DNA of 64,000 bases from an uncultured Candidatus Saccharibacteria bacterium. Lineage in GTDB: Bacteria; Patescibacteriota; Minisyncoccia; Phycocordibacterales; UBA918. The position numbers were made by a program, and so were the translations under genes. This document shows, in pieces, positions 1,195-64,000 of the stretch (the first letter of the stretch is position 1; each line of letters begins with the position of its first letter). Where the stretch lies: the NCBI GenBank assembly GCA_964552045.1, contig CAZKFF010000003.1:11880-75879 (forward strand). The letters are read 5' to 3'. Below the pieces are notes generated by a model. The model saw nothing but the letters and a program-made list of their open reading frames with translations. It was not told the origin of the DNA and did no database searches.

Positions 1195-2463
1195 TTGACC
1201 CTCTTTTCCGCTTTAGTATCATTACTCCCATACCGTAGTGGTATCACAAGAGCGTTGACGCTCTTTTTGTTTGGAGCATTACTGTTCACGGAAGCAAAAC
1301 GGCGGCGAGTCCATAACGTCACAATTATTTTAAGCAGTACACCAGATTCTGATTCTTCTAAACGCAGCGTACAAGAACGCAAGGATCAGAAGCCATATTC
1401 AGGAAAGCATCTGCCTCACACGGCAACTTTCTTCCTCTACGAGCTTGTTCCGGCAGCTCTGCTTCTTTTGTTACCGCTTTCGGTGCATGCCGGATTTCTT
1501 TCAAAAATGATGGGTATCTTCTCTGAAGAAGTGGTTGCACAGGTTGCTTCCGAAGAGGTTGACCACTCACCGTCAAACACGCCGCTTTTAAGCGCCACAA
1601 CGAATCCAGATCCACTGCGGGCAGTGGGTGGCGGCGAAGTGTACTATGAGGACGGCGTGCTCATCTCAACGGGGCCGGTCGGAGCTGATGAGCAGGCAGC
1701 GTCATCCAAAAACAAAGGCGAGATCAGTATCTATACAGTAGGAGATGGAGGAGAATCTCTCTCCTACATAGCGCAGATGTACGGGGTGAGCGTGAACACC
1801 ATTGTGTGGGCCAATAATCTTGAAAGCGACACCGATATTCACCCAGGAGATACGCTCGTGATATTGCCTATTGCCGGTGTCCAGCACACAGTTAAAAAAG
1901 GTGAATCATTGGAGTCTATCGTCAAGAAATACAACACCGATCTTGATGAAGAAAAATTCAATGATTACATTAATGAGGTGATTGAGTATAACAATCTTGC
2001 CTCAGCAGACGACATTGTTGAAGGCGATGAATTGATCATTCCAGGTGGAGAACTGCATACTTCTAAAAAAGTGGTTTCAGGAGCAAAACCAACAAAGACC
2101 TCAGGTTCTGTCTCCTCAGGTTCAGGTTTCATACGCCCGGTACCGTCCTATGCACAGAGAACCCAGGGTATCCATGGATATAACGGTGTGGACTTGGCAG
2201 CTGCCATCGGTACCCCGATCTATGCAGCAGCCGGAGGAGAGGTCATCGTTGCGAAAAGTTCGGGCTGGAACGGAGGATATGGTAATTATATTGTCATCAG
2301 ACACAAGAATACGCAGACACTGTACGCTCACCTGAGCAAGTTGTATGTTGGTGTCGGCGACGTGGTTGCTGCCGGCGACAATATCGGCGCGATGGGATCA
2401 ACGGGTAAGTCAACGGGTTCACACTTGCACTTTGAGGTGCGCGGAGGAACCAATCCGTTCTAG
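1195..2463 (+). CDS. Secreted peptidoglycan endopeptidase with two LysM domains and a C-terminal M23 domain; true start uncertain (TTG at 1195, hydrophobic anchor near residues 85-105)
   Basis: LysM-like blocks (ISIYTVGDGGESLSYIAQMYGVSVNTIVWANNL; HTVKKGESLESIVKKYN) and M23 motifs (GIHGYNGVDLAA..., GYGNYIVIRH, GSTGKSTGSHLHFEV). Confidence 0.8.
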   Translation: MTLFSALVSLLPYRSGITRALTLFLFGALLFTEAKRRRVHNVTIILSSTPDSDSSKRSVQERKDQKPYSGKHLPHTATFFLYELVPAALLLLLPLSVHAGFLSKMMGIFSEEVVAQVASEEVDHSPSNTPLLSATTNPDPLRAVGGGEVYYEDGVLISTGPVGADEQAASSKNKGEISIYTVGDGGESLSYIAQMYGVSVNTIVWANNLESDTDIHPGDTLVILPIAGVQHTVKKGESLESIVKKYNTDLDEEKFNDYINEVIEYNNLASADDIVEGDELIIPGGELHTSKKVVSGAKPTKTSGSVSSGSGFIRPVPSYAQRTQGIHGYNGVDLAAAIGTPIYAAAGGEVIVAKSSGWNGGYGNYIVIRHKNTQTLYAHLSKLYVGVGDVVAAGDNIGAMGSTGKSTGSHLHFEVRGGTNPF

Positions 2464-2547
2464 GATTTGTAAAGGTTGGCTAGTATTTTGAGAGCAAAGC
2501 GAAACAAAATACTGACAACCTGTACAGAACGTGTAGGGTTCAAATCC
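2463..2547 (+). ncRNA. Unclassified conserved nested stem-loop element, copy A (3' UTR of the M23 peptidase gene, before its terminator)
   Basis: Outer stem ggatttg/caaatcc, middle stem aggttg/caacct, inner stem agtattttg/caaaatact. The conserved core aaaggttg...gacaacctgtac is shared with the copy at 31517-31602, with compensatory pair changes. Confidence 0.4.
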
Positions 2548-2562
2548 ATTCTAAGAATAAGC

Positions 2563-10247: not shown

Positions 10248-11216
10248 TTGTCAAAAAGCATCGCAAATGTGCCAGGATGCGTGCGTTATACTTATATATG
10301 TATGGATCTGCAGGAGCTCAAACGACAATTTTTGGAATATCTCGAAATAGAACGCGGCCGCAGCGTCAAAACCATTGAAAATTATGACCGTTATCTTGAA
10401 AAATTCCTCGCGTTTGCAAAAGTACAGTCGCCTGCAGATGTAAGCGAGGAGCTGGTGCGCACTTTCAGGCTGTACCTCAACCGCCAGCCGGGAACCAAAA
10501 GTGGCAACCGCACAGAACCGATGAAGCGGCGGACCCAGAACTATTACCTCATCGCAGTGCGTGCATTCCTGAAATATATACGGAAACGGGGCATTGCCTC
10601 CCTCTCCCCTGAGTCCATCGAGCTTGCGAAAGTACCCGAGCGATCGCTCGATCTTATTACAGAACAGGAATTGAGCCGGCTCATGGATGCTCCAAACAAA
10701 GCAAATAGACAGGGACTTCGTGACCGTGCGATCCTCGAACTGCTGTTCTCAACGGGGCTGCGTATTTCGGAGCTGTGCAACCTGTCTGTTGACGATGTCG
10801 ATCTCTCACGCGATGAGTTCTCCGTGCGGGGAAAAGGAGACAAGATCCGCGTTGTCTTTCTTTCCGACAGCGCCAAGGATGCGGTGCGGGCATACCTGCA
10901 GTCACGCAAGGACATGGATGACGCGTTGTTTGTGCAGTATGGGAAAAACGCCAAAGATGCGAAGAGTTTGCGTCTCTCCCCTCGTGCCGTACAGCGTATG
11001 CTCAAAGTTTATGCAGCAACAGCCGGCATCACGCGCAAGGTGACGCCGCACGTCATCCGCCATAGTTTTGCGACCGACCTCTTAAGCAATGGCGCAGACC
11101 TGCGCTCTGTGCAGGCGCTGTTGGGCCACGCGAACATTGGCACGACGCAGATATATACGCATGTCACCGACAAGCACCTGCGCGATGTACACAAGAAATT
11201 TCACGGCCGAAAGTAA
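10248..11216 (+). CDS. xerC: Tyrosine site-specific recombinase XerC/XerD (likely start MDLQELK near 10302)
   Basis: N-terminal core-binding region (LEYLEIERGRSVKTIENYDRYL), catalytic residues R...HVIRHSFATDLL...GHANIGTTQIYTHV with Tyr. Confidence 0.85.
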   Translation: MSKSIANVPGCVRYTYICMDLQELKRQFLEYLEIERGRSVKTIENYDRYLEKFLAFAKVQSPADVSEELVRTFRLYLNRQPGTKSGNRTEPMKRRTQNYYLIAVRAFLKYIRKRGIASLSPESIELAKVPERSLDLITEQELSRLMDAPNKANRQGLRDRAILELLFSTGLRISELCNLSVDDVDLSRDEFSVRGKGDKIRVVFLSDSAKDAVRAYLQSRKDMDDALFVQYGKNAKDAKSLRLSPRAVQRMLKVYAATAGITRKVTPHVIRHSFATDLLSNGADLRSVQALLGHANIGTTQIYTHVTDKHLRDVHKKFHGRK

Positions 11217-15547: not shown

Positions 15548-15589
15548 GTTTATGCATGGCATGCATACGATCGCTGCCAAAGGACAGCT

Positions 15590-16363
15590 ATGACCGACCA
15601 GGCAAAGACAGTTTTGGAATGGACCTACGATCCGAAAAGCTTCTTTGAAGAGACCGTCTCATTTCCGGTTGAGAACGGCTCTATCACAATTGCAGAGGGC
15701 AAGGTCCGAGGTGAATTTGATGAAGCTTGCTATGATTACGGAAGGCAGTTTCGTGATGAGGTCGATCTGCAGGTCCGTGCGCTATTCATGGCACAGCAGG
15801 TTCAAGTGCATTCGAGCTTCAATCTCTCTGCGGCTTTGATGTCTCGCGAGCACAGTGATGGTCGGCGTGATGTAACGCTGTTTGCAGAGCCGCTCGCGCT
15901 TAAACTCAGCGGCGGTAAGGCCTATTTCGTAATCAAGGATGCCAACGGCAACATTACGCATGACAGCAGGGCGGAAAGGCTCGCTAAGCATCACAGTTTC
16001 CGCGAAGCTGTTGCGACCCTTTTGTCGAGAGACCGCATTCTCAAGCGGCTCCTCCAGAGCTTCCATGCGGCACTTTCGGACGAGGATAATTTGCTCATTC
16101 ATCTCTATGAAGTGCGCGACGCTCTGGTGTCTGAGTTTGGGAGCCATGAGGCTGTGCGAGACGCACTAGGTATTTCGGGGACTAGTTGGAGCAAGTTTGG
16201 GAGGCTTGCAGACAACGAACCTTTCTTGGAAGGAAGGCATCGGGGCCAACACGAGGTCCTGAGGCCAGCGGCAGCCTCTGAAATAGAATGGGTTCTTACT
16301 TTCTCGCAGGGTCTGATTGAAGCTTACGTCCAGTACCGAAATGAGCACCCTTCTGGGAGCTAA
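15590..16363 (+). CDS. Hypothetical protein (258 aa, starting at MTDQAKTVLEWTY downstream of the tRNA)
   Basis: The track ORF 15407-16363 overlaps the tRNA. The internal ATG gives a clean start just after it. No motif recognised. Confidence 0.5.
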   Translation: MTDQAKTVLEWTYDPKSFFEETVSFPVENGSITIAEGKVRGEFDEACYDYGRQFRDEVDLQVRALFMAQQVQVHSSFNLSAALMSREHSDGRRDVTLFAEPLALKLSGGKAYFVIKDANGNITHDSRAERLAKHHSFREAVATLLSRDRILKRLLQSFHAALSDEDNLLIHLYEVRDALVSEFGSHEAVRDALGISGTSWSKFGRLADNEPFLEGRHRGQHEVLRPAAASEIEWVLTFSQGLIEAYVQYRNEHPSGS

Positions 16364-16785: not shown

Positions 16786-17949
16786 GTGCACATGCGCTTT
16801 GCCCCGTACAAAAACCTTTTCATCTTTGCAGCGCTTGCGGTGCTTGCTGTAGGCTCAATGATCGTACTTTCCATTCTGTGGCAATCCGCACCGGAGCCCT
16901 CCCCTTCTGTCACTTCGGTCAAAGAGGAATACCTTCACTGCATCACTCTGCCGGAAGATGAGGATGTCGCACAGTGTCTCGATGAGGTTGCATCGATCGC
17001 CTACAACCGGTATCCGACCAGAGACATAGCCGCAGTCCTCGACAGCCTTTCCTACCAGGAAAAGAATCGCTGGTGCCACGAGATCATGCATTACATGGGG
17101 TGGGAAGCCTATGCGCAGGAAGACAGCATCGCTGACGCCTTCCTGCATTCCTCTGAACTCTGCGACAGCGGTATGTACCACGGCGTTATGGAAGCATATC
17201 TGCGATCCGAAGGGCTCGCCGGAGATATCGAGACCCTCATTCGGACCGTATGTACCGATGCGCTTGCATCGCATCCGGGCCTCAGCGAGGGCGTGCTCGC
17301 GCTGTGTTTCCATGGTCTCGGACACGGCCTTATGTACGTCACCGCTTCCGATCTTGGGCGTTCACTGGAGTACTGCGAAATACTGCAAGAAGGTGCACCT
17401 GCATGCTACGGCGGCGTATTTATGGAATTTACGACAAGTAAAGAGATCGGACCGCTCCACAACAATCGGAACCTCACGGAAAATTTTTGCGTCACGCTGA
17501 ACGAAAAGTACTGGAACATGTGCTATTACCGGATGGGGCTCAATTTTTTCTCCGCGACAAACGGCTCTGTAGGTGAAGCGATGGAGCTGTGCAGCACGGT
17601 GCCAAAGGAACACCAGGGAAACTGTTTTTTGGGCGTGGGCGGCAACAACCCTTCCCCGAGTAAGTCGCACAGCGATGCGGGCGCAGCGTGCCTGGAAGCG
17701 CTCCGTGTCTCCGAAGATGCCTATGAGGGATGCATAAGCGGCAGTTTGGGGTTCGTACTGAGCCTTGAATGGGGCGATATGCGGGGAGCAGTTGAGTTCT
17801 GCAGTGCGGTAGACGAACAGTATCAGCGTTTCTGCTACGCAGAAGCCGGCCGCGCGGCGCTCGCATGGGTGAAGCCGGAAGAAACGCTTGCAGAGAAATG
17901 CAGTGTCCTCCCCGCTTTCGAAGCGGAAGCAGCATGTATGGAGCAGTAA
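16786..17949 (+). CDS. Hypothetical membrane-anchored Cys-rich repeat protein (eight-fold C-x2-G-x2-[HY]-G-x-[ML] repeats; one HEIMH motif)
   Basis: N-terminal TM anchor. Repeats CHEIMHYMGW, CDSGMYHGVM, CFHGLGHGLM, CYGGVFMEF, CYYRMGLNF, CFLGVGGN, CISGSLGFV, CYAEAGRAAL. Confidence 0.5.
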   Translation: MHMRFAPYKNLFIFAALAVLAVGSMIVLSILWQSAPEPSPSVTSVKEEYLHCITLPEDEDVAQCLDEVASIAYNRYPTRDIAAVLDSLSYQEKNRWCHEIMHYMGWEAYAQEDSIADAFLHSSELCDSGMYHGVMEAYLRSEGLAGDIETLIRTVCTDALASHPGLSEGVLALCFHGLGHGLMYVTASDLGRSLEYCEILQEGAPACYGGVFMEFTTSKEIGPLHNNRNLTENFCVTLNEKYWNMCYYRMGLNFFSATNGSVGEAMELCSTVPKEHQGNCFLGVGGNNPSPSKSHSDAGAACLEALRVSEDAYEGCISGSLGFVLSLEWGDMRGAVEFCSAVDEQYQRFCYAEAGRAALAWVKPEETLAEKCSVLPAFEAEAACMEQ

Positions 17950-18693: not shown

Positions 18694-18764
18694 GCGGCCA
18701 TGGTTAAGTGGTATAATGAGTCCTTGCCAAGGATTAGTCGGGAGTTCGATTCTCCCTGGCCGCA
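18694..18764 (+). tRNA. tRNA-Gly (anticodon GCC), no encoded CCA
   Basis: Acceptor GCGGCCA/TGGCCGC, D-stem GTTA/TAAT, anticodon stem AGTCC/GGATT with loop TTGCCAA, T-arm GGGAG-TTCGATT-CTCCC. Confidence 0.85.
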
Positions 18765-18766
18765 CT

Positions 18767-18806: not shown

Positions 18807-18846
18807 TGCTGGAGAATTGAAAAGGCTTTGCTCTCGGGTATTCTCC

Positions 18847-23888: not shown

Positions 23889-24071
23889 TGAGGAATATGA
23901 AGTATAGCATATTTTGGGGTTTTTGAAGGAGAGGGAGTTTCCTCAACGGGCGGAAAGGCGGGAATCTTTCTCTACGGGAACGGTATAGTCTTCACATCTC
24001 ATTTCCCAGAGGCTCGTTGCGATATGCTCAGGCTCTTCGATTCCCGGACACAAGCAAAGCAGTTTGCTTGT

Positions 24072-24129
24072 GCTCCCCGACAAATAATAAAGGCTCTCTT
24101 TCGAGAGCCTTTATTATTTGTCGGGGAGC
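24072..24129. terminator. 58-bp perfect palindrome (27-bp arms) forming the tRNA-Pro terminator; its arm includes the last 9 nt of the tRNA
   Basis: gctccccgacaaataataaaggctctc-tttc-gagagcctttattatttgtcggggagc. The right arm overlaps the tRNA-Pro 3' acceptor end. Confidence 0.6.
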
Positions 24130-24191
24130 CGGGAATCGAACCCGGACCACACGGTCCCAAACCGCGTACACTACCACTATGCTACACCCCG
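24121..24191 (-). tRNA. tRNA-Pro (anticodon TGG), no encoded CCA
   Basis: Reverse complement folds as CGGGGTG-TA-GCAT-AGTGGTA-GTGT-A-CGCGG-TTTGGGA-CCGTG-TGGT-CCGGG-TTCGATT-CCCGG-CTCCCCG-A, with one acceptor T-T mismatch. Confidence 0.8.
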
Positions 24192-30208: not shown

Positions 30209-31267
30209 CTACAGTTGCTGCTGGAGCACAAGCTGCAGGAATGGTACGAGCGTATCTTTGAACACCTGCGCACGGTAGGGGAGATCACCGCTTATGTTCT
30301 GCAACAGTGAGAATCCGGTCTCTTCCTTGATGGTGCGGTCAATATACGACAGTGAAAGCGCGCGCAGGCTTCCTTCGCCGAACTCCGCATCATCACCCTT
30401 GGTACTGATGATGCCGATGGCGTTGCCGTGCGCATCGACCACCGGGCCGCCGGAGGAGCCGTGTTCGCCGATCTGCGAGCCGCGAATGGTGAATATATCG
30501 ACGTAGTTGGATGCAAAGGTCATGAGATCACCGATGGTCGTGGTTGCCTGCTTGGGGACAAGCGGGGCAGTGATGTCATGCACAAGCGCCTGTGCAGGGT
30601 AGCCGGTGGCAAAGACCTCGGTATCGACGATATTGAGCTTGAGAAGGTCAGTGTCGAACGGAAGGGCGGCGAATTTGCCGGGCATGGGTTTGTTGTTGAG
30701 TGCAGCGGTCACATACAGAAGCGCGTAGTCGCGTTCGCCGGTACCCTTCGGAGCAGCGTCGTTTATGAGCTGTGCATGGTCACGTATCCATGCCGGTGAG
30801 ATGTACAGAAGCTCCGCCTCGTACTGCGGTGTCGCTGGATTGCCGGTACGGATGACGCACTGCGCCTGTCCCATAACGCCCTCAAGGAGCAAAAACTGGG
30901 CAACATGGGCATTGGTGAGGATGACGCCGTCAGTATCAATGAAGAATCCTGTGCCGGTGGTCGTTTTGGTATAGGTGTCGGTGCTGAATGAGCAGTAGAT
31001 ATTGACCAAGGCCTCAAGCGCTGTTGCGGGAGCGGTCTCTGGGTCGATACTTCCTACGATCGAAGCCTTCTGATACGCCGCATTCTTGATGAGTATATCG
31101 GGGATGCCTTGGAGCCTGGATTCAACCTGTGCCAGACGCTGCGTGGTCTGCGCTGTGTGCGTCTGTGGTGCTCCGGGCACGAGTGCCTGCAGCTGCGCTG
31201 CTGCGCTTCCTGACAGGGCCAGATAGCCACTGAGTATCGCCACGGCAAGATCGAGCAGGAATTGCAT
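30209..31267 (-). CDS. Secreted trypsin-like (S1/DegP-like) serine protease
   Basis: Signal peptide; catalytic His (VILTNAHV), Asp, Ser (GSSGGPVVDAHGNAIGI). Confidence 0.8.
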   Translation of the reverse strand: MQFLLDLAVAILSGYLALSGSAAAQLQALVPGAPQTHTAQTTQRLAQVESRLQGIPDILIKNAAYQKASIVGSIDPETAPATALEALVNIYCSFSTDTYTKTTTGTGFFIDTDGVILTNAHVAQFLLLEGVMGQAQCVIRTGNPATPQYEAELLYISPAWIRDHAQLINDAAPKGTGERDYALLYVTAALNNKPMPGKFAALPFDTDLLKLNIVDTEVFATGYPAQALVHDITAPLVPKQATTTIGDLMTFASNYVDIFTIRGSQIGEHGSSGGPVVDAHGNAIGIISTKGDDAEFGEGSLRALSLSYIDRTIKEETGFSLLQNISGDLPYRAQVFKDTLVPFLQLVLQQQL

Positions 31268-31356
31268 GGTTACTGCAGTATAGCAAAATAGCCTAGAAAT
31301 TCAGAAGAATAAGTGCTAGAATGGCGCGCACCAATTGCTGAATTAAGCAATCAACT

Positions 31357-31427
31357 GCGGGTGTGGTTTAGTGGTAAAACGACTGCCTTCCAAGCAGTAG
31401 TCGGGGGTTCGATTCCTCTCACCCGCA
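31357..31427 (+). tRNA. tRNA-Gly (anticodon TCC), no encoded CCA
   Basis: Acceptor GCGGGTG/CACCCGC, D-arm GTTT-AGTGGTA-AAAC, anticodon stem ACTGC/GCAGT with loop CTTCCAA, T-arm GGGGG-TTCGATT-CCTCT. Confidence 0.85.
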
Positions 31428-31490
31428 CACATATGTTCCAGAAAAAAGCCCGTCAAGGGCTTTTTTCTTTGGAACATAGTGTGCGGGTGA
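31419..31490. repeat. Inverted repeat of the tRNA-Gly 3' end (tcacccgcacacatatgttcca / tggaacatagtgtgcgggtga) enclosing a terminator hairpin at 31442-31468
   Basis: Read directly. 21-22-nt arms with one indel. A further 10-bp hairpin gtaacctgct-ggg-agcaggttac follows at 31492-31514. Confidence 0.6.
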
Positions 31491-31516
31491 AGTAACCTGC
31501 TGGGAGCAGGTTACGT

Positions 31517-31602
31517 GAGGAATCGAAAAGGTTGACTGCTATTTTGTGACGGAGGATACAAAATAGCGACAACCTGTACTGATCCTGTAAGGATCGATTC
31601 CT
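31517..31602 (+). ncRNA. Unclassified conserved nested stem-loop element, copy B (between tRNA-Gly(TCC) and the low-GC gene)
   Basis: Outer stem aggaatcga/tcgattcct, middle aggttg/caacct, inner gctattttg/caaaatagc. Same core as copy A (aaaggttg...gacaacctgtac) with compensatory changes in both outer and inner stems. Confidence 0.4.
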
Positions 31603-31621
31603 ATAAAATGAGTGATAAAAT

Positions 31622-32161
31622 GTGCTTATGAACACAGAGCCTAAGAAATATATATTTCATGTAGAGCCTGCAATTGCTGCCATAACACCATACGGGATGG
31701 CCACTATCTCCGAGGACTTATTCAAAATGGCTTCTTATTTTGAAAATGATAACAAAATATCACTTGCACAGTATTATATTTACTGTGCATCTATGGAAAT
31801 CGGATTAAAGGCGGCAATTCTTGCTAGAGATTGCACAAAAGAGAGCAAGGAAACGATTAAAAATTTTGGACACAACTTACATACTGTAAAAAATAAATTT
31901 GAAGATTTGTACGACCCAATTTGGGATAAAGATGATATAAAAGCTATTGAGAAAATTAATCCTTTTTTCAAAGATAAAGATTTAGAATACTTTAAGATTA
32001 ATGTAATGGGTGAAATGTTAAAAGGGTTAAAACAGTTCCCGTCTCTTGACTCGATAGAAAATGCTGCCCGGAAAGTAAATCAGTTTGTGAATCAAGAAAA
32101 ATTCTTTATTAACGCCAAAACGTCTCAAAAACCAGGTAAAGGATTTATAAATTTTGTATAA
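31622..32161 (+). CDS. Hypothetical protein encoded by a markedly low-GC (about 35%) gene; likely horizontally acquired cargo next to the tRNA
   Basis: The composition shift against the ~57% GC background is visible by eye. It lies just downstream of the tRNA and the inverted copy of its 3' end. No domain recognised. Confidence 0.55.
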   Translation: MLMNTEPKKYIFHVEPAIAAITPYGMATISEDLFKMASYFENDNKISLAQYYIYCASMEIGLKAAILARDCTKESKETIKNFGHNLHTVKNKFEDLYDPIWDKDDIKAIEKINPFFKDKDLEYFKINVMGEMLKGLKQFPSLDSIENAARKVNQFVNQEKFFINAKTSQKPGKGFINFV

Positions 32162-32164
32162 AAC

Positions 32165-32557
32165 ATGACCCCTCACATCTCCCTCATCACCCTCGGCGTT
32201 TCCGACCTTCCAAAATCAACCGCCTTCTACAAAGCACTCGGTTTTCCTGCTGAGGGCGACGGGGAAGGGGTGACCTTCTTCAAGCTCCAGGGCACCTGGC
32301 TCTCGCTCTTCCCAAAAGAGGAACTCTCCAAAGACGCACAGACACCAATGGGTACAATTGCGCCCACATTTTCACTTGCACATAATGTCGCAAGCAAAGA
32401 AGCGGTACACGAAGTCATTGAGCTTGCTCGGAGTATCGGAGCTGTAATCATAAAGGAACCGCAGGATACCTTCTGGGGAGGATACGCCGGGTATTTCAAA
32501 GATCCCGACGGGTATCTGTGGGAAGTTGCCTGGAATCCGTTTATGGATCTCACCTAA
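32165..32557 (+). CDS. VOC/glyoxalase-bleomycin-resistance-family protein
   Basis: Two beta-alpha-beta-beta-beta modules (ISLITLGVSDLPKSTAFYKALGF ... FKDPDGYLWEVAWNP). A terminator follows at about 32560-32590. Confidence 0.75.
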   Translation: MTPHISLITLGVSDLPKSTAFYKALGFPAEGDGEGVTFFKLQGTWLSLFPKEELSKDAQTPMGTIAPTFSLAHNVASKEAVHEVIELARSIGAVIIKEPQDTFWGGYAGYFKDPDGYLWEVAWNPFMDLT

Positions 32558-32586
32558 CATAAACCCCCGGACAAGCCGGGGGTTTT

Positions 32587-32946
32587 TCACTTGCGAAAGA
32601 TAGTTTCGCCGATCCTGACCGCATTTACGACATGCTCCGTACCGTATCGCATTAATGCGAAGGCGATGCCGATATAGCGGATGGGTCGTGACTTGAATCT
32701 GCTGTGGAGTGTGATCAGGAAGTGGAGGGCTTCCAGCTCGATCGTCCATTGGCGCAGGGTTTCCCGCACAAGTTCCGCGTCATAGATCCTCATCAGCTCA
32801 ATGAGCTGATGTATGGCCATTTCTTCGACATAGGCGAGCTTAGCTTCGTCTGAGGCACCTTCGTATTTCTCCTTCAGTTCGACGGCGGTCTTCGCTATCA
32901 TTCGTGAAAGGATGTGTTTGATAAGACCCTTGCGTGACTGGTTCAC
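32587..32946 (-). CDS. Hypothetical protein (119 aa)
   Basis: ORF only. No motif. Confidence 0.4.
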   Translation of the reverse strand: MNQSRKGLIKHILSRMIAKTAVELKEKYEGASDEAKLAYVEEMAIHQLIELMRIYDAELVRETLRQWTIELEALHFLITLHSRFKSRPIRYIGIAFALMRYGTEHVVNAVRIGETIFRK

Positions 32947-33201
32947 TTTCGTAGCTCCAAGAACGGTTTACCGTACTCAATCATAGTCCCGTCATAAAAG
33001 CAAAAAGCCCCGGCTAAGGGCTTTCTGCTTTGTGATGGGAAATAGCGGGAATTACTCCTTGTATTTCCACATAGCGTAATACCTCCGCTACGTGTGTCAG
33101 TATAGCAGATTTCAAAACGGAATGGGAAGAGTGCACATCCTGTTCATAACTCGGACACAAAAAAGCTGCGGTGTACCGCAGCTTTTTTGTGTGGGGAGTG
33201 A

Positions 33202-59815: not shown

Positions 59816-60229
59816 ATGGCAACAATTAATCAATTAGCACGAAAAAGTCGCGCGTCTAAGACCAACAAGTCCAAGACGGGTGCGTTGCAGCTTGGCTTCA
59901 ACTCTATCGAGAACAAGCCAAACCACTACAACTCGCCGTTCAAGCGAGGCGTATGTACGCGTGTGACCACCAAGACTCCGCGCAAGCCGAACTCTGCGAT
60001 CCGAAAGATCGCGCGTGTTCGTCTTTCGAACGGTCAGGAGATCACTGCGTACATCCCGGGTATCGGCCACTCACTGCAGGAACACTCAGTGGTGCTCGTC
60101 CGCGGAGGCCGCGTGAAGGACATCGGCGTACAGTACACGATCGTTCGTGGAAAGTACGACGCAACGGGAGTAGATGCTCGACGCATGGGACGATCACGCT
60201 ACGGCGCGAAGCGACCTAAAGGTGAGTAG
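59816..60229 (+). CDS. rpsL: 30S ribosomal protein S12
   Basis: [13 protein letters not shown]...[10 protein letters not shown]...[22 protein letters not shown]. The structured GC-rich leader at 59590-59810 ends in a hairpin plus T-run. Confidence 0.9.
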
Positions 60230-60592
60230 AGACTAAATGTCTCTACGCAAGACCTTGCCTGATATTTTCTGAGCGAGCGAAAGAAAATATCGACGAGGTG
60301 TACAGCTTCTGTAAGAAGAATAATTTCTTCATCGTACAGAACCGGCACATTACTAATAAATAGTCTATATTCGCTACAGATAACGGATGAGGTTCAAGCC
60401 AGAAATGGCTTCGGAACCGCACTATGCGAAGAATGAAATGTGGCATTGTCATATTCTCATTTGTTTGCATGTAAGTTACTCATGCGGGTTGGGGCATATT
60501 GTGGGAGTGCGTGATCTGAAAATGCATTAGGAATAGCATTTTGAGATTTACAAGTTTTCTACAATTCGCTCCGCTCATTAAGAAAACTAATA

Positions 60593-61066
60593 ATGCGACG
60601 ACCAATTAAAAAACGGAATGTTGTCGAACCGGATGTCGTGTTCGAATCAACAGAGGTCTCAAAGCTCATCAACTACGTGATGCTCCGGGGCCAGAAGGAG
60701 ACTGCACGCAAGATCGTGTATGCAGCCTTCGAGGAGATCAAGAATGCAAAAGACGGCGGCGGAGATCCGCTCGTTATCTTCGACACTGCGCTGAAGAACG
60801 CAGGTCCGCAGATGGAGGTGCGCAGTCGGCGTGTTGGTGGAGCGAACTACCAGGTGCCGCGCGAAGTCCGTCCAGAACGGCGTCATGCTTTGGCCCTGCG
60901 CTGGATCATCAGCGGCGCACGCGGACAGAAGGGGGTACCTATGCACGCAGCGCTTGCAAAGGAGATCATGCTTGCAGCCAAAGGAGAAGGAAATGCGGTC
61001 AAGAAGAAGGATGATACGCATAAGATGGCGGAGGCGAACCGAGCATTCGCGCATTTTGCCTGGTAA
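60593..61066 (+). CDS. rpsG: 30S ribosomal protein S7
   Basis: MRRPIKKRNV...LINYVMLRGQKETARKIVY...VRSRRVGGANYQVP...AKGEGNAVKKKDDTHKMAEANRAFAHF. Confidence 0.9.
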   Translation: MRRPIKKRNVVEPDVVFESTEVSKLINYVMLRGQKETARKIVYAAFEEIKNAKDGGGDPLVIFDTALKNAGPQMEVRSRRVGGANYQVPREVRPERRHALALRWIISGARGQKGVPMHAALAKEIMLAAKGEGNAVKKKDDTHKMAEANRAFAHFAW

Positions 61067-61182
61067 TATTGGAGCCGTTTAGGCGAACACTGTTCCAGTT
61101 GCAAATGCGGTGATGCCCTTGCGGGTGTGTCCACTTCGCCAGGTAAACCTCATTTTGAACGAATTACTTCGTTGAGCACGCA

Positions 61183-61228
61183 AAAAAAGCCGCTCGTCGT
61201 ACAGCAAGTACGCCTCGCGGCTTTTTTG
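61183..61228. terminator. Terminator directly after rpsG (no fusA or tuf follows)
   Basis: aaaaaaagccgc...gcggctttttt. Confidence 0.8.
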
Positions 61229-61273
61229 CTATTCGCCTCGTCCTTCATTTCAAGATTTACCCGAACCTCTTAC

Positions 61274-61495
61274 TTAAGCGTCTGATGTGCCAAGGTGTTC
61301 ATGATTTCTCCTTTTAGCCTCGGGCGACATGTGGTCGGCGTCATACTCTTCTTCAGCGAAGAGCCCGAACATGAAGCCGAGCAACAGAAAAGTGACGATC
61401 TTGTCAGTGAGTACGCCTATAATAAGACCTATAAAGAGGCCGAGCGCAACTCCTGGACCTTTGAACAGAAACTGATTTTTCATAGAGGCACTCAT
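61274..61495 (-). CDS. Candidate small membrane protein (73 aa; the C-terminal part of the longer track ORF)
   Basis: MSASMKNQFLFKGPGVALGLFIGLIIGVLTDKIVTFLLLGFMFGLF with an acidic tail. The upstream part of the track ORF overlaps a plus-strand gene. Weak RBS. Confidence 0.3.
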   Translation of the reverse strand: MSASMKNQFLFKGPGVALGLFIGLIIGVLTDKIVTFLLLGFMFGLFAEEEYDADHMSPEAKRRNHEHLGTSDA

Positions 61496-61558
61496 AGCAT
61501 CCGTACATGAACCTGCTGTGAAAATCCTTCCCGAATACGGCCATGCTAAAATAAGCGG

Positions 61559-61990
61559 ATGGAAAGCTTGGGAAATAATGAGAAGCCGCTGTCGATGGTA
61601 GAGCGCAAACGGCAGGAGGCGTTTGCCGCAGTGTGCGATGTGCTCGATGAGCGACTCAACCGTGATATCGGCCGGACATTCGAATCGCACGGGCGCGAGT
61701 ACGAGCTCACTTCGCCCGAAGACTGCATGGTCGCGTTTGCGCAGATGATGCAGCAGGAGATACGCCGTCTCTACCAGGAGATCGTCGCAAAGGAGGACTA
61801 CCGGGAGGAGCAGGCCGCAGCGAAACTTCTGGAACTGATCAATACGTACGAGCGCCTGATCGCGCTCTATGCGGAGCTGCGCAGCTACTATCCGAGCGCA
61901 GCGTCGCGCATCGAGGCGCATATCCCATCATTGCAGGAGATCGCTGCACATGGAGAGAAACTGTGGGTGGGCATGCAGGATAACGCATAG
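61559..61990 (+). CDS. Hypothetical protein (143 aa)
   Basis: ORF only; helical and charged. Confidence 0.45.
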   Translation: MESLGNNEKPLSMVERKRQEAFAAVCDVLDERLNRDIGRTFESHGREYELTSPEDCMVAFAQMMQQEIRRLYQEIVAKEDYREEQAAAKLLELINTYERLIALYAELRSYYPSAASRIEAHIPSLQEIAAHGEKLWVGMQDNA

Positions 61991-61994
61991 AAGT

Positions 61995-63047
61995 ATGGAT
62001 ACTGATCTTCAAAAAGAGATAGCGGCGCACGGTGCGCAGATACGGAAGCTCGAAAAGGCTCCGGGCATCTACACCGCTTCGGCGCATACGGTTGCAACCG
62101 GATACGACAAGGCATGGCTGCGCGATATCTATTTCATCGTCCTTTCCTTTCTTGAGACAGGGGACATCGCTACTGTGAAGCGCTCGGCCCGTGCGCTCCT
62201 CGACGTGTTCATAAAACACAAGGATAAGATCAGCTGGGCCATAGAGCACAAGCCGCATGAGACATGGCAGTACATCCACGCGCGTTTCCATCCGGAAACC
62301 TTCGAGGAGTTCTGGGAGGAATGGGGTAACCGGCAGCATGATGCAGTGGGCGAAGTCCTCAACCTCATTTGCGAGATGGAGCTTCGCGGAGAGAGTGTTG
62401 TTGCCGGCGATGAAGATAAGGACATGGTGCAGAAGATCGTCGATTATCTCATTCGCGTTGAGTATTGGAACGATCCGGACAACGGCATCTGGGAGGAGAA
62501 CTTGGAGATCCACGCCTCGTCAGTGGGATCGGTTGTGGCAGCGCTCCGCAAAGCACAAGAGATCTCATGGTTGTCTGTTCCCGACTGGGATATACAGAAA
62601 GGAGAGGAGACGCTCCGCTCGCTTCTGCCGCGTGAATCGCAGGGGAAGTTCGCCGATCTGGCGCTCATGTCGCTTATCTATCCGTTCGACGTGGTCACGC
62701 AAGAAGAAGCTGATGAGATCCTCAGCAACGTCGAGTATCACCTCACGCGCGATAAAGGAGTCATTCGCTACAAGAACGACCGCTATTACAATGCCAATGA
62801 AGACGGATACAGCGAAGAAGCGGAGTGGTGCTTCGGATTGTCGTGGCTTTCAATCATTTATGCGCTCCGCGGCGAAAAAGAAAAAGCGCTGCGGTACCTA
62901 CAGCGAGCCAGAGAGACGGTCACAAGCAGCGGGGAGGTGCCGGAACTCTACTACTCACATTCGAACAGGCCCAACGGTAATACGCCGCTTGGATGGGCGG
63001 AAAGCATGTACGTCATTGCACTTCAAAAGGTGCACGATATGAAATAA
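61995..63047 (+). CDS. Glycoside hydrolase family 15 (glucoamylase/glucodextranase/trehalase-like) catalytic domain protein (start MDTDLQK)
   Basis: (alpha/alpha)6 barrel signatures: WLRDIYF, NGIWEEN, EYSGEV-like VPELYYS, and LGWAESMYV near the C-terminus. A terminator follows at about 63049-63078. Confidence 0.7.
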   Translation: MDTDLQKEIAAHGAQIRKLEKAPGIYTASAHTVATGYDKAWLRDIYFIVLSFLETGDIATVKRSARALLDVFIKHKDKISWAIEHKPHETWQYIHARFHPETFEEFWEEWGNRQHDAVGEVLNLICEMELRGESVVAGDEDKDMVQKIVDYLIRVEYWNDPDNGIWEENLEIHASSVGSVVAALRKAQEISWLSVPDWDIQKGEETLRSLLPRESQGKFADLALMSLIYPFDVVTQEEADEILSNVEYHLTRDKGVIRYKNDRYYNANEDGYSEEAEWCFGLSWLSIIYALRGEKEKALRYLQRARETVTSSGEVPELYYSHSNRPNGNTPLGWAESMYVIALQKVHDMK

Positions 63048-63077
63048 AACAAAAGCCGGCACAAGTGCCGGCTTTTG

Positions 63078-63644
63078 TTACACCTGCAGGTACTGCGAGA
63101 TCTCCTCAAATATTTCTTCAGGGATGCGGCGGTTGGTGTCCAGATAGAGTCCTTCATGGCTGAATATCTCACGAAGCTGCTTTAGCTCATCTTCAGCACC
63201 GTTGCGCTCAAGCTCCATGAACGCATCATAACTGATCGGACGTTCGCCATGTTTTTCCAGACGGTTATTGTACCGCGCAAACCGCGTATCGACATCGGCG
63301 TCGATATACAGGAGGAGGAGGCGGTCATTCTTCTGTGCGGTGATGAGCCGCAGCGTATCAACATCCACCAAACGCCGGTTGCCCTCAATGATGATGTTGG
63401 GATAGTCCACCGCAGCAACTTTCTCCGCAAGCGCTTTGCTCAGGAAATCCTCGCCCCGCGTTTCCCGTTCTGAGAGAAAGAGGTTCTGAAGCGTTGACTT
63501 ATCCTCCGGGTCAAGCCCGCGCTCGAATGCGATGGTCGAAAGAATGTCCGAGTACTTGATGCGGAATGCATCAGTCTTCTCTGCAAGCATGTGTGCAATG
63601 GTCGTCTTGCCGCTGGCGGTTGGTCCCGCAATACCGATGATCAT
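63078..63644 (-). CDS. P-loop NTPase, putative nucleoside/nucleotide kinase (CoaE/dNK-like fold)
   Basis: Walker A GIAGPTASGKTT at the N-terminus; lid-like RRL/DR region. Exact substrate family not assignable. Confidence 0.55.
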   Translation of the reverse strand: MIIGIAGPTASGKTTIAHMLAEKTDAFRIKYSDILSTIAFERGLDPEDKSTLQNLFLSERETRGEDFLSKALAEKVAAVDYPNIIIEGNRRLVDVDTLRLITAQKNDRLLLLYIDADVDTRFARYNNRLEKHGERPISYDAFMELERNGAEDELKQLREIFSHEGLYLDTNRRIPEEIFEEISQYLQV

Positions 63645-63725
63645 AGTGTGTCCATTATAGGGAAGTTCTGCTTCCGGGCAAGAGAAAGGCGCCGCGAACG
63701 GCGCCTTTGATATGTGAAGCGGAGC

Positions 63726-64000
63726 TCAGTTTGCTGTGAAGATGTCGAGTTTCCCCTCGACGATCTCAGTGATGAGGCCGATCTCCTTGGCCTCCTGTGC
63801 GGTGAGAGAACTGTTGAAGCGCTGATCGCCGCGCTCGAGAAGTACATCGATCTTCTCTTCGGGCAGGTTGAGCTTGCGCACATAGAGCTCGGTGACCAGC
63901 CGTGCCACGGTGGTGGTCTCATTCAGCAGGTCCTCCAGGTTCTTGGGCGTCATCTTGTCCATCTTGAATTCGACGCCGCCGGTAGTGCCTGAGTGAATGA
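63726..64000 (-). CDS. Second ClpP-like protease paralog, C-terminal part only (gene runs off the window end)
   Basis: The frame continues upstream of the track Met as ...IHSGTTGGVEFK MDKMTPKNLEDLLNE...RFNSSLTAQEAKEIGLITEIV, resembling the ClpP MIHQP..GGAQG...RDRFLSAEEA..GLID C-terminal region. Confidence 0.5.
   Translation of the reverse strand, partial: IHSGTTGGVEFKMDKMTPKNLEDLLNETTTVARLVTELYVRKLNLPEEKIDVLLERGDQRFNSSLTAQEAKEIGLITEIVEGKLDIFTAN

Follow-up and report, generated by a model that had tools for sequence, protein, structure and literature searches.

The window analysed here, a 64,000-nt stretch of contig CAZKFF010000003.1 from an uncultured Candidatus Saccharibacteria bacterium, contains four copies (A to D) and one remnant of an element of about 90 nt that folds as a three-way junction. 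We found that this element belongs to a repeat family whose fold is conserved on one defined strand, and whose tRNA-linked members are joined to copies of the tRNA 3′ end. Units built around it have been gained or lost at orthologous sites; they are amplified in tandem and degenerate, and some lie apart from tRNA genes, in either orientation. On balance, we lean towards the view that the element is the core of a Patescibacteria-wide, non-autonomous mobile repeat that moves via a folded single strand and has a strong preference for tRNA 3′ ends.

A first-pass annotation of the window had reported two segments of roughly 85 nt, A and B, with a common core. Both were recovered by a covariance model of the element, R1 (scores in Table 1), but they are far from being the only two copies. 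A scan with a 20-base core pattern, using one genome per species, gave at least 117 loci, and about 100 of the matches listed are real copies with the full architecture. R1, built from 89 copies, found 162 copies in 98 sources (97 fetched loci, with handles such as L003, and the window; 759 kb in total), often several per 8-kb locus. A covariance-model search was among the checks that the annotation had proposed; it brought further copies, and the covariation held in the larger alignment. Two matches to the core, AAAGGTTG-N(25-55)-GACAACCTGTAC, are present in the window, against none in 100 dinucleotide shuffles. Since A and B are unrelated in sequence beyond the ~90-nt element, they are not a recent duplication that brought its flanks along, the trivial explanation that the annotation had allowed for.

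Conservation and strand of the fold

The three-way junction consists of an outer stem (P1), a long two-tier hairpin (P2a and P2b) and a short hairpin (P3), connected by strands of the form (G)AAAA, UGUAC(Y)G and 0-2 nt. The first-pass annotation had given both copies a three-tier architecture with an outer and an inner stem, and had not listed P3. Folding gave z-scores of -3.2 (copy A) and -6.7 (copy B). When the copies were aligned with MAFFT and folded with RNAalifold, without the model, P2a, P2b and P3 were recovered, and many pairs had changed on both sides. In an alignment of 147 distinct copies, which was fitted to the model and is thus biased toward structure, standard pairs make up 95.0% of cells versus 76.5% upon shuffling (0 of 500 shuffles reached the observed value), and there are 570 double-change cells versus 138 in the shuffles. 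Sliding the 3′ partner by 1-3 columns left a pairing of only 34-51%, and this control, together with the independent RNAalifold result, argues that the covariation signal is real. Covariation is seen in all four helices. Even P2a, which was fixed in the search pattern, swaps GC to CG in copies found by the model (for instance AGGTTG/CAACCT versus ACCTTG/CAAGGT, in window copy C and in L109), and copy C carries the compensatory variant ACCTTG/CGAGGT. The compensatory changes reported for the inner stem are therefore real and general, and selection on the fold rather than on the sequence, as the annotation had proposed, is strongly supported by both the RNAalifold result and the covariation statistics.

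The fold also has a strand. G·U and U·G pairs together number 134, whereas A·C and C·A combinations number 36, and it follows from this excess that the fold is selected on the tRNA-sense strand, not on its complement and not as a symmetric cruciform. Among the unpaired positions, conservation is found in the (G)AAAA junction between P1 and P2, in a 3-nt internal loop of P2 (mostly CCW) facing GA, in the UGUAC(Y)G junction between P2 and P3, and in an invariant GUA triloop on P3. The tip of P2 has tandem G·A/A·G pairs below a mini-stem with a GNA or GNRA loop, GCGAAGC being common, and the ends of the family consensus read ..gGanUcG-AAaAGgUU.. and ..cgAnucc... DNA and RNA alike can form stable GNA triloops and tandem G·A pairs, so the conserved features do not by themselves decide between a DNA and an RNA fold.

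Association with tRNA 3′ ends

For 98 of the 162 copies, a same-strand tRNA gene lies upstream at a distance of no more than 130 nt; a further 16 are arranged in tandem behind another copy. This link, and with it the nature of the outer stem as a pair of tRNA copies, had gone unmentioned in the first-pass annotation. The tail behind P3 directly repeats the part of the upstream tRNA that runs from T-loop to discriminator base, and at some loci it continues into the tRNA trailer. Compared with the last 16 nt of the cognate tRNA, this tail has at least 13 matches in 68 of the 98 copies (33 of them perfect), versus 1.7% in non-cognate controls. An inverted copy of the same tRNA end is found upstream of the core, with a median longest exact match of 9-10 nt versus 5 in controls. 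P1 is the inverted T-loop copy paired with the direct one, and outer stems differ between copies because they follow the identity of the tRNA. Outer-stem differences are not free variation, the 3′ strand being a copy of T-loop and T-stem sequence from the tRNA upstream. Eighteen tRNA isotypes are involved, most commonly Leu (25) and Ser (16).

A complete unit sits directly behind a same-strand tRNA gene and consists, in this order, of its own terminator-like hairpin; the inverted copy of the tRNA 3′ end, sometimes split by a further hairpin, P0; the junction AAA with the long hairpin P2; the junction (U)GUAC with the short hairpin P3 and its GUA triloop; and the direct tRNA copy from T-loop to discriminator base. 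Its flanks, a complete tRNA gene and a partial 3′ direct repeat, are those of tRNA-targeting elements. Around 30% of the strong copies have a long form, where the inverted copy is interrupted by P0, a hairpin of 8-11 bp whose pentaloop reads YGGRR; the split is at a constant 10-12 nt ahead of the junction, and the P0 stem has 36 distinct sequences in 40 copies. At long-form sites, one long palindrome is made up of the tRNA acceptor 3′ strand, the trailer, the terminator-like hairpin and the inverted copy.

By a crude count, a hairpin followed by a T-run separates the tRNA from the element in at least 55 of the 98 linked copies. The consensus promoter/terminator scanner that we used called no terminator in the regions 31250-31700, 2350-2700 and 60150-60650, even though there are clear GC hairpins with T5-T6 runs behind tRNA-Gly(TCC) and copy A, probably because A- and T-tracts lengthen the stems and consume the T tail. 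Our statements on terminators thus rely on direct reading of the sequence and on a crude count of hairpins followed by T4. No promoter-like site was found before the element with the same scanner.

We also considered whether the inverted copy is a primer-binding site that pairs with the mature tRNA, and rejected this because it mirrors the genomic trailer, not the CCA end. Immediately upstream of element-bearing tRNA genes, we noted an open reading frame (ORF) of LAGLIDADG type (Pfam; L049 1916-3019) and another of helix-turn-helix type (L007 3168-3941, minus strand). A link to homing is possible, but such ORFs occur at about 6 loci in total and are too rare to explain the family.

Variation at orthologous sites

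The site behind tRNA-Leu(TAA) is empty in a Nomurabacteria metagenome-assembled genome (MAG; L003), while its orthologue in a related MAG (L059) is filled with three identical 142-bp tandem units, each bounded by tcaattcccgccccgggcac, after which the orthologous downstream flank follows. Exact tandem arrays have periods of 139-142 nt. Decay is seen as well: copy D is degenerate, yet its inverted copies are perfect, and the copy behind tRNA-Gly(GCC) is truncated. [quoted passage not shown]

Similar variation was observed in the spacer between rpsL and rpsG (encoding S12 and S7), where copy C lies. Relatives were reached by a search for S7 homologues (84-97% identical; the window S7 is 84% identical to a Candidatus Kaiserbacteria protein), and the spacer lengths are 51, 213, 255, 259, 311, 330 and 363 nt. 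By its S7, and by the RNase Y comparison given below, the window belongs to a Kaiserbacteria-like lineage within the Paceibacteria. With the filters of the model search switched off, the spacer holds a copy in the window and in L127 only, and none in L125, L126 or L128; relative to the empty L125 and L126, the window carries an inserted block at ~60230-60336. The L127 copy is on the minus strand, antisense to the rpsL-rpsG operon, and on the far side of a spacer block common to all five sequences, whereas the window copy is on the plus strand. An element found in only two of the five sequences, inserted at different places and with opposite orientations, is not a conserved part of the operon RNA. 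We saw neither a target duplication nor a conserved short target at the window insertion, although this was not systematically tested.

Most of the copies without a tRNA gene, which we call orphans, have the orientation of the gene upstream (13 of 17). This fits transcription, and equally fits the co-orientation of genes with replication. In L126 there are two tandem orphans (16888-16972 and 17072-17164), the first of them 15 nt after the fusA stop codon, and together with window copies A and C they suggest that orphans favour the 3′ ends of genes.

The conservation of the fold raises the question of whether it serves the host as an RNA, made either when transcription of the tRNA gene reads through or as the 3′ portion of an mRNA. 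An acceptor/T-arm minihelix would be imitated by the stack of P1 on P3, P2 would be a single additional arm, and RNase P, RNase Z, a CCA-adding enzyme or RNase Y might cut or stabilise the transcript; plant dicistrons of a tRNA and a small nucleolar RNA, released by RNase Z, offer an analogy. The tRNA-end copies would then persist through the need of P1 to pair and through homogenisation of neighbouring repeats. A number of observations speak for such an RNA: the fold on the sense strand, the high conservation of its unpaired nucleotides (AAA, GA, UGUAC, the GUA triloop, tandem G·A and GNRA/GNA), the uninterrupted run from the 3′ strand of P3 into that of P1, which tRNA minihelices also have, the sense orientation of copies A and C within transcription units and of the 13 orphans mentioned above, the conservation of the tRNA-Gly(TCC) copy, with a compensatory change, in distant relatives, and the presence in the window of genes for a CCA-adding-type enzyme, PNPase and RNase Y. 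We nevertheless judge it unlikely, if worth keeping in mind, as terminator-like hairpins stand between tRNA and element in so many linked copies, no promoter-like site precedes the element, the spacer copy is antisense in L127 and differs in presence and position among the five relatives, many copies show decay or truncation, the genomic trailer and not the mature CCA end is mirrored by the inverted copy, and neither ARAGORN nor the Rfam tRNA model sees anything tRNA-like. The first-pass annotation had left the choice between a structured RNA and a DNA site of attC or IS200/IS605 kind; the empty and filled sites, tandem units and opposite orientations favour mobile DNA, although of neither of these two kinds (see below).

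Another RNA-based explanation would be a self-cleaving ribozyme or retroelement-type repeat, whose tandem units are transcribed, cut to monomers and copied into DNA. The compact three-way junction with its invariant junction nucleotides and the exact tandem arrays are what it would predict, but we consider it very improbable: no Rfam ribozyme family matches, the junctions do not conserve the hammerhead core CUGANGA...GAAA, no protein family, and hence no reverse transcriptase, recurs near the copies, and no reverse transcriptase is among the best 25 of 77 Pfam families of the window. A hammerhead-like UGA-stem-GAAA motif in P2 was examined separately and dismissed, since its topology is that of a plain hairpin and conservation is lacking at C3, G5 and A6.

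Independently of the mobile element, the S12-S7 spacers of the window, L125, L126, L127 and L128 share a conserved block (60345-60475 in the window; AATAGTCTATATTCGCTACAGAT ... CTATGCGAAGAATGAAATGTG) with a central CTTCGG hairpin. It matches no Rfam family at gathering score, and could be an S7 autoregulatory leader or another cis-acting RNA. Further downstream in these relatives, rpsG and fusA are separated by 0.9 to ~9 kb of variable genes (61067-64000 in the window; also L126 and L128), including genes for glycoside hydrolase 15 and ABC ATPases and other ORFs without assigned identity. As fusA does not lie directly behind rpsG, the classical str operon is split in this lineage.

Cargo genes and islets

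Foreign genes lie between the tRNA and the element at some loci, and beside or inside the direct repeat at others. In L109, tRNA-Asn is followed by a variant element and then by two cassettes, each of them closed by a terminator-like hairpin, followed by an inverted copy, the core and a repeat that matches at 16 of 16 positions. In L074, a deaminase gene is found inside a repeat copy, with an older module beyond it, further from the tRNA; the trailer, inverted copy and P0 stem of this older module are close to those of copy B, and its core is a different, compensated variant. Defence genes are found in L087 (Table 1), in a stretch of 4 kb or more that precedes an element whose repeat resembles tRNA-Ser. 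All cargo genes there have the orientation of the element, and the contig begins before any tRNA.

In the window, copy B is located, as had been annotated, at the edge of a low-GC islet beside tRNA-Gly, 99 nt 3′ of the tRNA-Gly(TCC) gene. For the first islet gene, ORF179, we found no Pfam family and only a weak PADLOC match (PDC-M12B, E=0.002). In the syntenic locus L084 (a Paceibacterota MAG whose RNase Y shares 70% identity with the window protein), the direct repeat is complete and the islet, including ORF179, is absent. No second copy of the tRNA-Gly 3′ end was found on the far side of the window islet.

Proposed mode of spread

How might a unit of this kind move? We envisage spread through a single-stranded intermediate, either the sense DNA strand, exposed as lagging-strand template or as transforming single-stranded DNA, or a read-through transcript. 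The three-way junction would be the feature recognised by an enzyme acting in trans, the T-loop-like strand of P1 could direct the element to tRNA genes, and recombination or template switching between tRNA-end copies might insert, excise and amplify units.

Several points weigh against a mobile repeat of this type. Among 636 ORFs within 2.5 kb of the copies, only housekeeping families recur, at no more than 10 of ~95 loci, and a phmmer search of the same ORFs with the window Xer protein (E <=10) detected no tyrosine recombinase near the element. Two scans of viral contigs in IMG/VR gave no real copy (two chance matches with the core pattern, none with the P3/junction pattern), and an origin from a phage attachment site (attP) is thus unsupported as well. 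We found neither the terminal inverted repeats nor the short target duplications that are usual for MITEs. In P1, one arm of the inverted repeat is tRNA sequence, and no short duplication was seen at the single orphan insertion with definable boundaries. The junctions between cargo and direct repeat fall at varying positions (window, L041, L069, L074, L005), which is not like one fixed crossover point. The copy behind tRNA-Gly(TCC) has been kept, with compensatory differences, in the window, L084, L074 and L099, even though the neighbouring protease is only 46% identical between the window and L084; such retention could reflect host selection at this locus or replacement by other copies. Finally, the GNRA/GNA loops and tandem G·A pairs suit an RNA as well as a DNA fold, and gain and loss cannot be told apart from empty and filled sites.

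tRNA-targeting elements encode their own integrase, and here the units do not: the only tyrosine recombinase of the window is Xer-like (10248-11216) and 8-21 kb from any copy. No gene for a Y1 transposase, a REP-associated tyrosine transposase (RAYT) or TnpB was seen near the copies, where no protein family recurs; no dedicated whole-genome search with Y1 or TnpB profiles was made. The units could nevertheless be passive, as attachment-site arms left behind when integrase-bearing islands or prophages entered the T-loop region of tRNA genes, the short units being the residue after deletion of cargo and integrase. Such scars would account for units flanked by a full tRNA and a partial 3′ tRNA repeat, for the older module of L074 lying further from the tRNA than the newer one, and for the defence cargo in L087, and their architecture would agree with that described for tRNA-targeting elements (bioRxiv 10.1101/2020.12.28.424599). 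However, with no integrase near any of the ~95 loci, no match in viral contigs, orphans inserted elsewhere in both orientations without a tRNA repeat, covariation and strand asymmetry that would not be expected of a double-stranded arm site, and one core behind 18 tRNA isotypes where an integrase normally targets one, we find this explanation improbable.

Returning to the mobile repeat, we tentatively suggest a more specific role, about which we remain doubtful: a previously unrecognised, integrase-free route of gene capture at tRNA genes in Patescibacteria, driven by a host enzyme acting on a folded-strand site. The folded strand would combine the conserved three-way junction with a duplex copy of the tRNA T-loop/acceptor region, made from the inverted and the direct repeat, and would act as a recombination or priming site at which small cassettes, including defence genes, could be inserted, excised and stacked behind almost any tRNA gene. 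Patescibacteria, also known as the candidate phyla radiation (CPR), have very small genomes, and to our knowledge few of their mobile elements have been described besides group I introns and a few phages; their ways of gaining and exchanging genes are largely unexplained. If the mobile-repeat reading holds, the borders of variable islets behind tRNA genes could be recognised with R1, by sequence and structure, in at least two major classes, and the family would offer a testable example of tRNA 3′ ends being targeted by a folded, strand-specific element that carries no enzyme. It would also account for some of the assembly and annotation problems around tRNA clusters in Patescibacteria MAGs. 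If instead the element acts as RNA, it would be a new and widespread class of tRNA-linked RNA.

Distribution of the family

Among the core-pattern matches listed, the real copies are in MAGs labelled Patescibacteria, or as "bacterium" only, or, in two MAGs, with another name. The labels include Saccharibacteria, Paceibacteria/Parcubacteria, Kaiserbacteria, Nomurabacteria, Taylorbacteria and Minisyncoccia. The two MAGs labelled otherwise, as Patiriisocius sp. (L004, L089) and Acidimicrobiales (L108), carry typical copies beside tRNA clusters, and these contigs may be mis-binned. Matches in clearly different taxa were discarded as chance, because the stems are absent. The element could serve to mark Patescibacteria contigs.

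Apparently, this is a large and undescribed repeat family, as literature searches returned no description of the element. The first-pass annotation could not assign it to a named family, and a scan of Rfam 15 bore this out: no family matched the element at gathering score or at E <=10, the four tRNAs being the only gathering-score matches in the window. Most of the weak matches that the copy A and B regions gave at E <=10 belong to the terminator-like hairpins beside them. ARAGORN and the Rfam tRNA and tmRNA models likewise failed to recognise the element. Two systems known from the same bacteria were set aside: the TIGR/box C-D arrays, which also occur in CPR bacteria (PMC12045711) and have a different architecture, and the group I introns of Patescibacteria tRNA genes (PMC13011429), which are unrelated, being located in the anticodon loop, with no Intron_gpI match.

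Copies in the window

Three of the four tRNA genes in the window carry a copy or remnant. The exception is tRNA-Arg(TCG), immediately after which there is a 257-aa ORF without a Pfam family (15548-16363).

Copy A begins at the TAG stop codon of a LysM/M23 peptidase gene (1195-2463) and is followed, on direct reading, by a GC hairpin and T-run at ~2565-2597, in agreement with its annotated place between the end of a peptidoglycan hydrolase gene and a terminator. It is an orphan, and the 3′ strand of its P1, GGTTCAAATCC, resembles a T-loop. Copy C is immediately preceded by an 8-bp hairpin at 60227-60247.

Behind tRNA-Gly(TCC), the module that includes copy B holds one inverted and one direct copy of the tRNA sequence from T-loop to 3′ end (31408-31428). 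In the long palindrome, the acceptor 3′ strand and trailer (31419-31442) pair with the inverted copy (31467-31490), in which 31481-31490 is the anti-acceptor GTGCGGGTGA, and enclose a terminator-like site of a GC hairpin and T6 at ~31447-31466. After P0 comes the inverted T-loop copy GTGAGGAATCGA (31515-31526), the source of the 5′ strand of P1, and the direct repeat ends early, after TCGATTCCT (31594-31602).

The other two tRNA-linked sites are degraded. Copy D is ~75 nt downstream of tRNA-Pro(TGG) (24120-24191, minus strand); its perfect inverted copies are TCGGGGAGC (24080-24072) and CCGGGAATCGA (24047-24037), and its direct repeat, at ~23966-23948, has decayed. Behind tRNA-Gly(GCC), a terminator-like hairpin is followed by the remnant, with the inverted T-loop copy GGAGAATTGA and AAAGG, where it is truncated.

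Table 1. Positions of the element copies, their parts and the associated features (window coordinates unless a locus handle is given)
Feature	Position	Strand	Details
Copy A, core segment	2463-2547	+	R1 match 2461..2551, 81 bits, E ~1e-22; orphan, without tRNA
Copy A, P1	2463-2469 with 2541-2547		
Copy A, P2a	2473-2478 with 2516-2521		
Copy A, P2b	2482-2490 with 2505-2513		
Copy A, GTAC junction	2522-2525		
Copy A, P3	2527-2530 with 2538-2541		
Remnant	18809..18825	+	Truncated; behind tRNA-Gly(GCC) (18694-18765)
Copy D	23957..24046	-	29 bits; degenerate
tRNA-Gly(TCC)	31357..31428	+	
Long palindrome at copy B	31419..31490	+	Direct sequence reading
Copy B, P0 hairpin	31492..31514	+	Long form; 9-bp stem 31492-31500 with 31506-31514, pentaloop TGGGA
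Copy B, core segment	31517-31602	+	R1 match 31517..31605, 98 bits, E ~5e-28; tRNA-linked
Copy B, P1	31518-31524 with 31596-31602		
Copy B, P2a	31529-31534 with 31570-31575		
Copy B, P2b	31537-31548 with 31556-31567		
Copy B, P3	31581-31586 with 31590-31595		GTA triloop 31587-31589
Window islet	31603..33060	+	~1.45 kb; joined to the shortened direct repeat of copy B
ORF179	31622-32161		Low-GC, 179 aa; first islet gene
Glyoxalase	32165-32557		In islet
ORF119	32587-32946	-	In islet
Copy C	60239..60329	+	50.6 bits; orphan in rpsL-rpsG spacer, directly 3′ of S12 stop
L087 cargo	L087 500-3925		LexA-like S24 protein, CBASS oligonucleotide cyclase (E=4e-32), 2TM effector (E=5e-48), two unknown ORFs

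Comparison with known systems

The DNA sites named in the first-pass annotation are useful points of comparison, although the element is neither of them. Like the integron attC site, a folded single-stranded recombination site (PMC2727003), it is an imperfect palindrome defined by structure and variable in sequence at the 3′ end of gene cassettes, it is apparently read as a folded single strand, and its cassette arrays are anchored at one site. It lacks, however, the R″/R′ boxes (RYYYAAC/GTTRRRY), the T-loop-derived GTTCGAA or GTTCAAG violating GTTRRRY at the fourth position. Its centre is conserved where that of attC is variable, and its fold is on the sense strand of the cargo (judging from the G·U excess and most cargo ORFs) and not on the bottom strand. 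There is no IntI gene near it, and the anchor is a tRNA gene instead of attI. With the palindrome-associated transposable elements (PATEs) of the IS200/IS605 type, and with repetitive extragenic palindromes and bacterial interspersed mosaic elements (REP/BIME), it shares small size, intergenic location, the lack of an enzyme and of classical terminal inverted repeats, a hairpin-based and strand-specific structure, and insertion at gene ends. In contrast to these, it is a three-way junction and not a simple hairpin, and no IS605, omega-RNA or HEARO-type family of Rfam matches. An identity with IS200/IS605 ends, which insert 3′ of a 4-5-nt target without duplication, fails because tRNA-linked copies are flanked by direct repeats of 20-25 nt.

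The forked hairpin of CTX-phi attP(+) is folded single-stranded DNA that imitates its chromosomal target. Similarly, the two inverted target copies of the element, ~90 nt apart, could form a duplex that copies the chromosomal site, the target being a tRNA 3′ end instead of dif, and no phage genome being attached.

By analogy, the element appears to work most like the stackable elements beside tRNA genes that are typified by the tycheposons of Prochlorococcus, which are flanked by partial tRNAs and build islands next to tRNA genes (bioRxiv 10.1101/2020.12.28.424599). As in tycheposons, the tRNA gene in front of a unit is intact and part of its 3′ end is repeated at the close of the unit; units are stacked into arrays (with the older module of L074 further from the tRNA), and variable cargo and degenerate remnants form islets beside tRNA genes. 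Unlike tycheposons, the units have no integrase or other mobility gene and are as small as 142 bp, one conserved core serves 18 tRNA isotypes, an extra inverted copy of the tRNA end is present, orphans occur away from tRNA genes, and the core itself is a strand-specific, covarying three-way junction.

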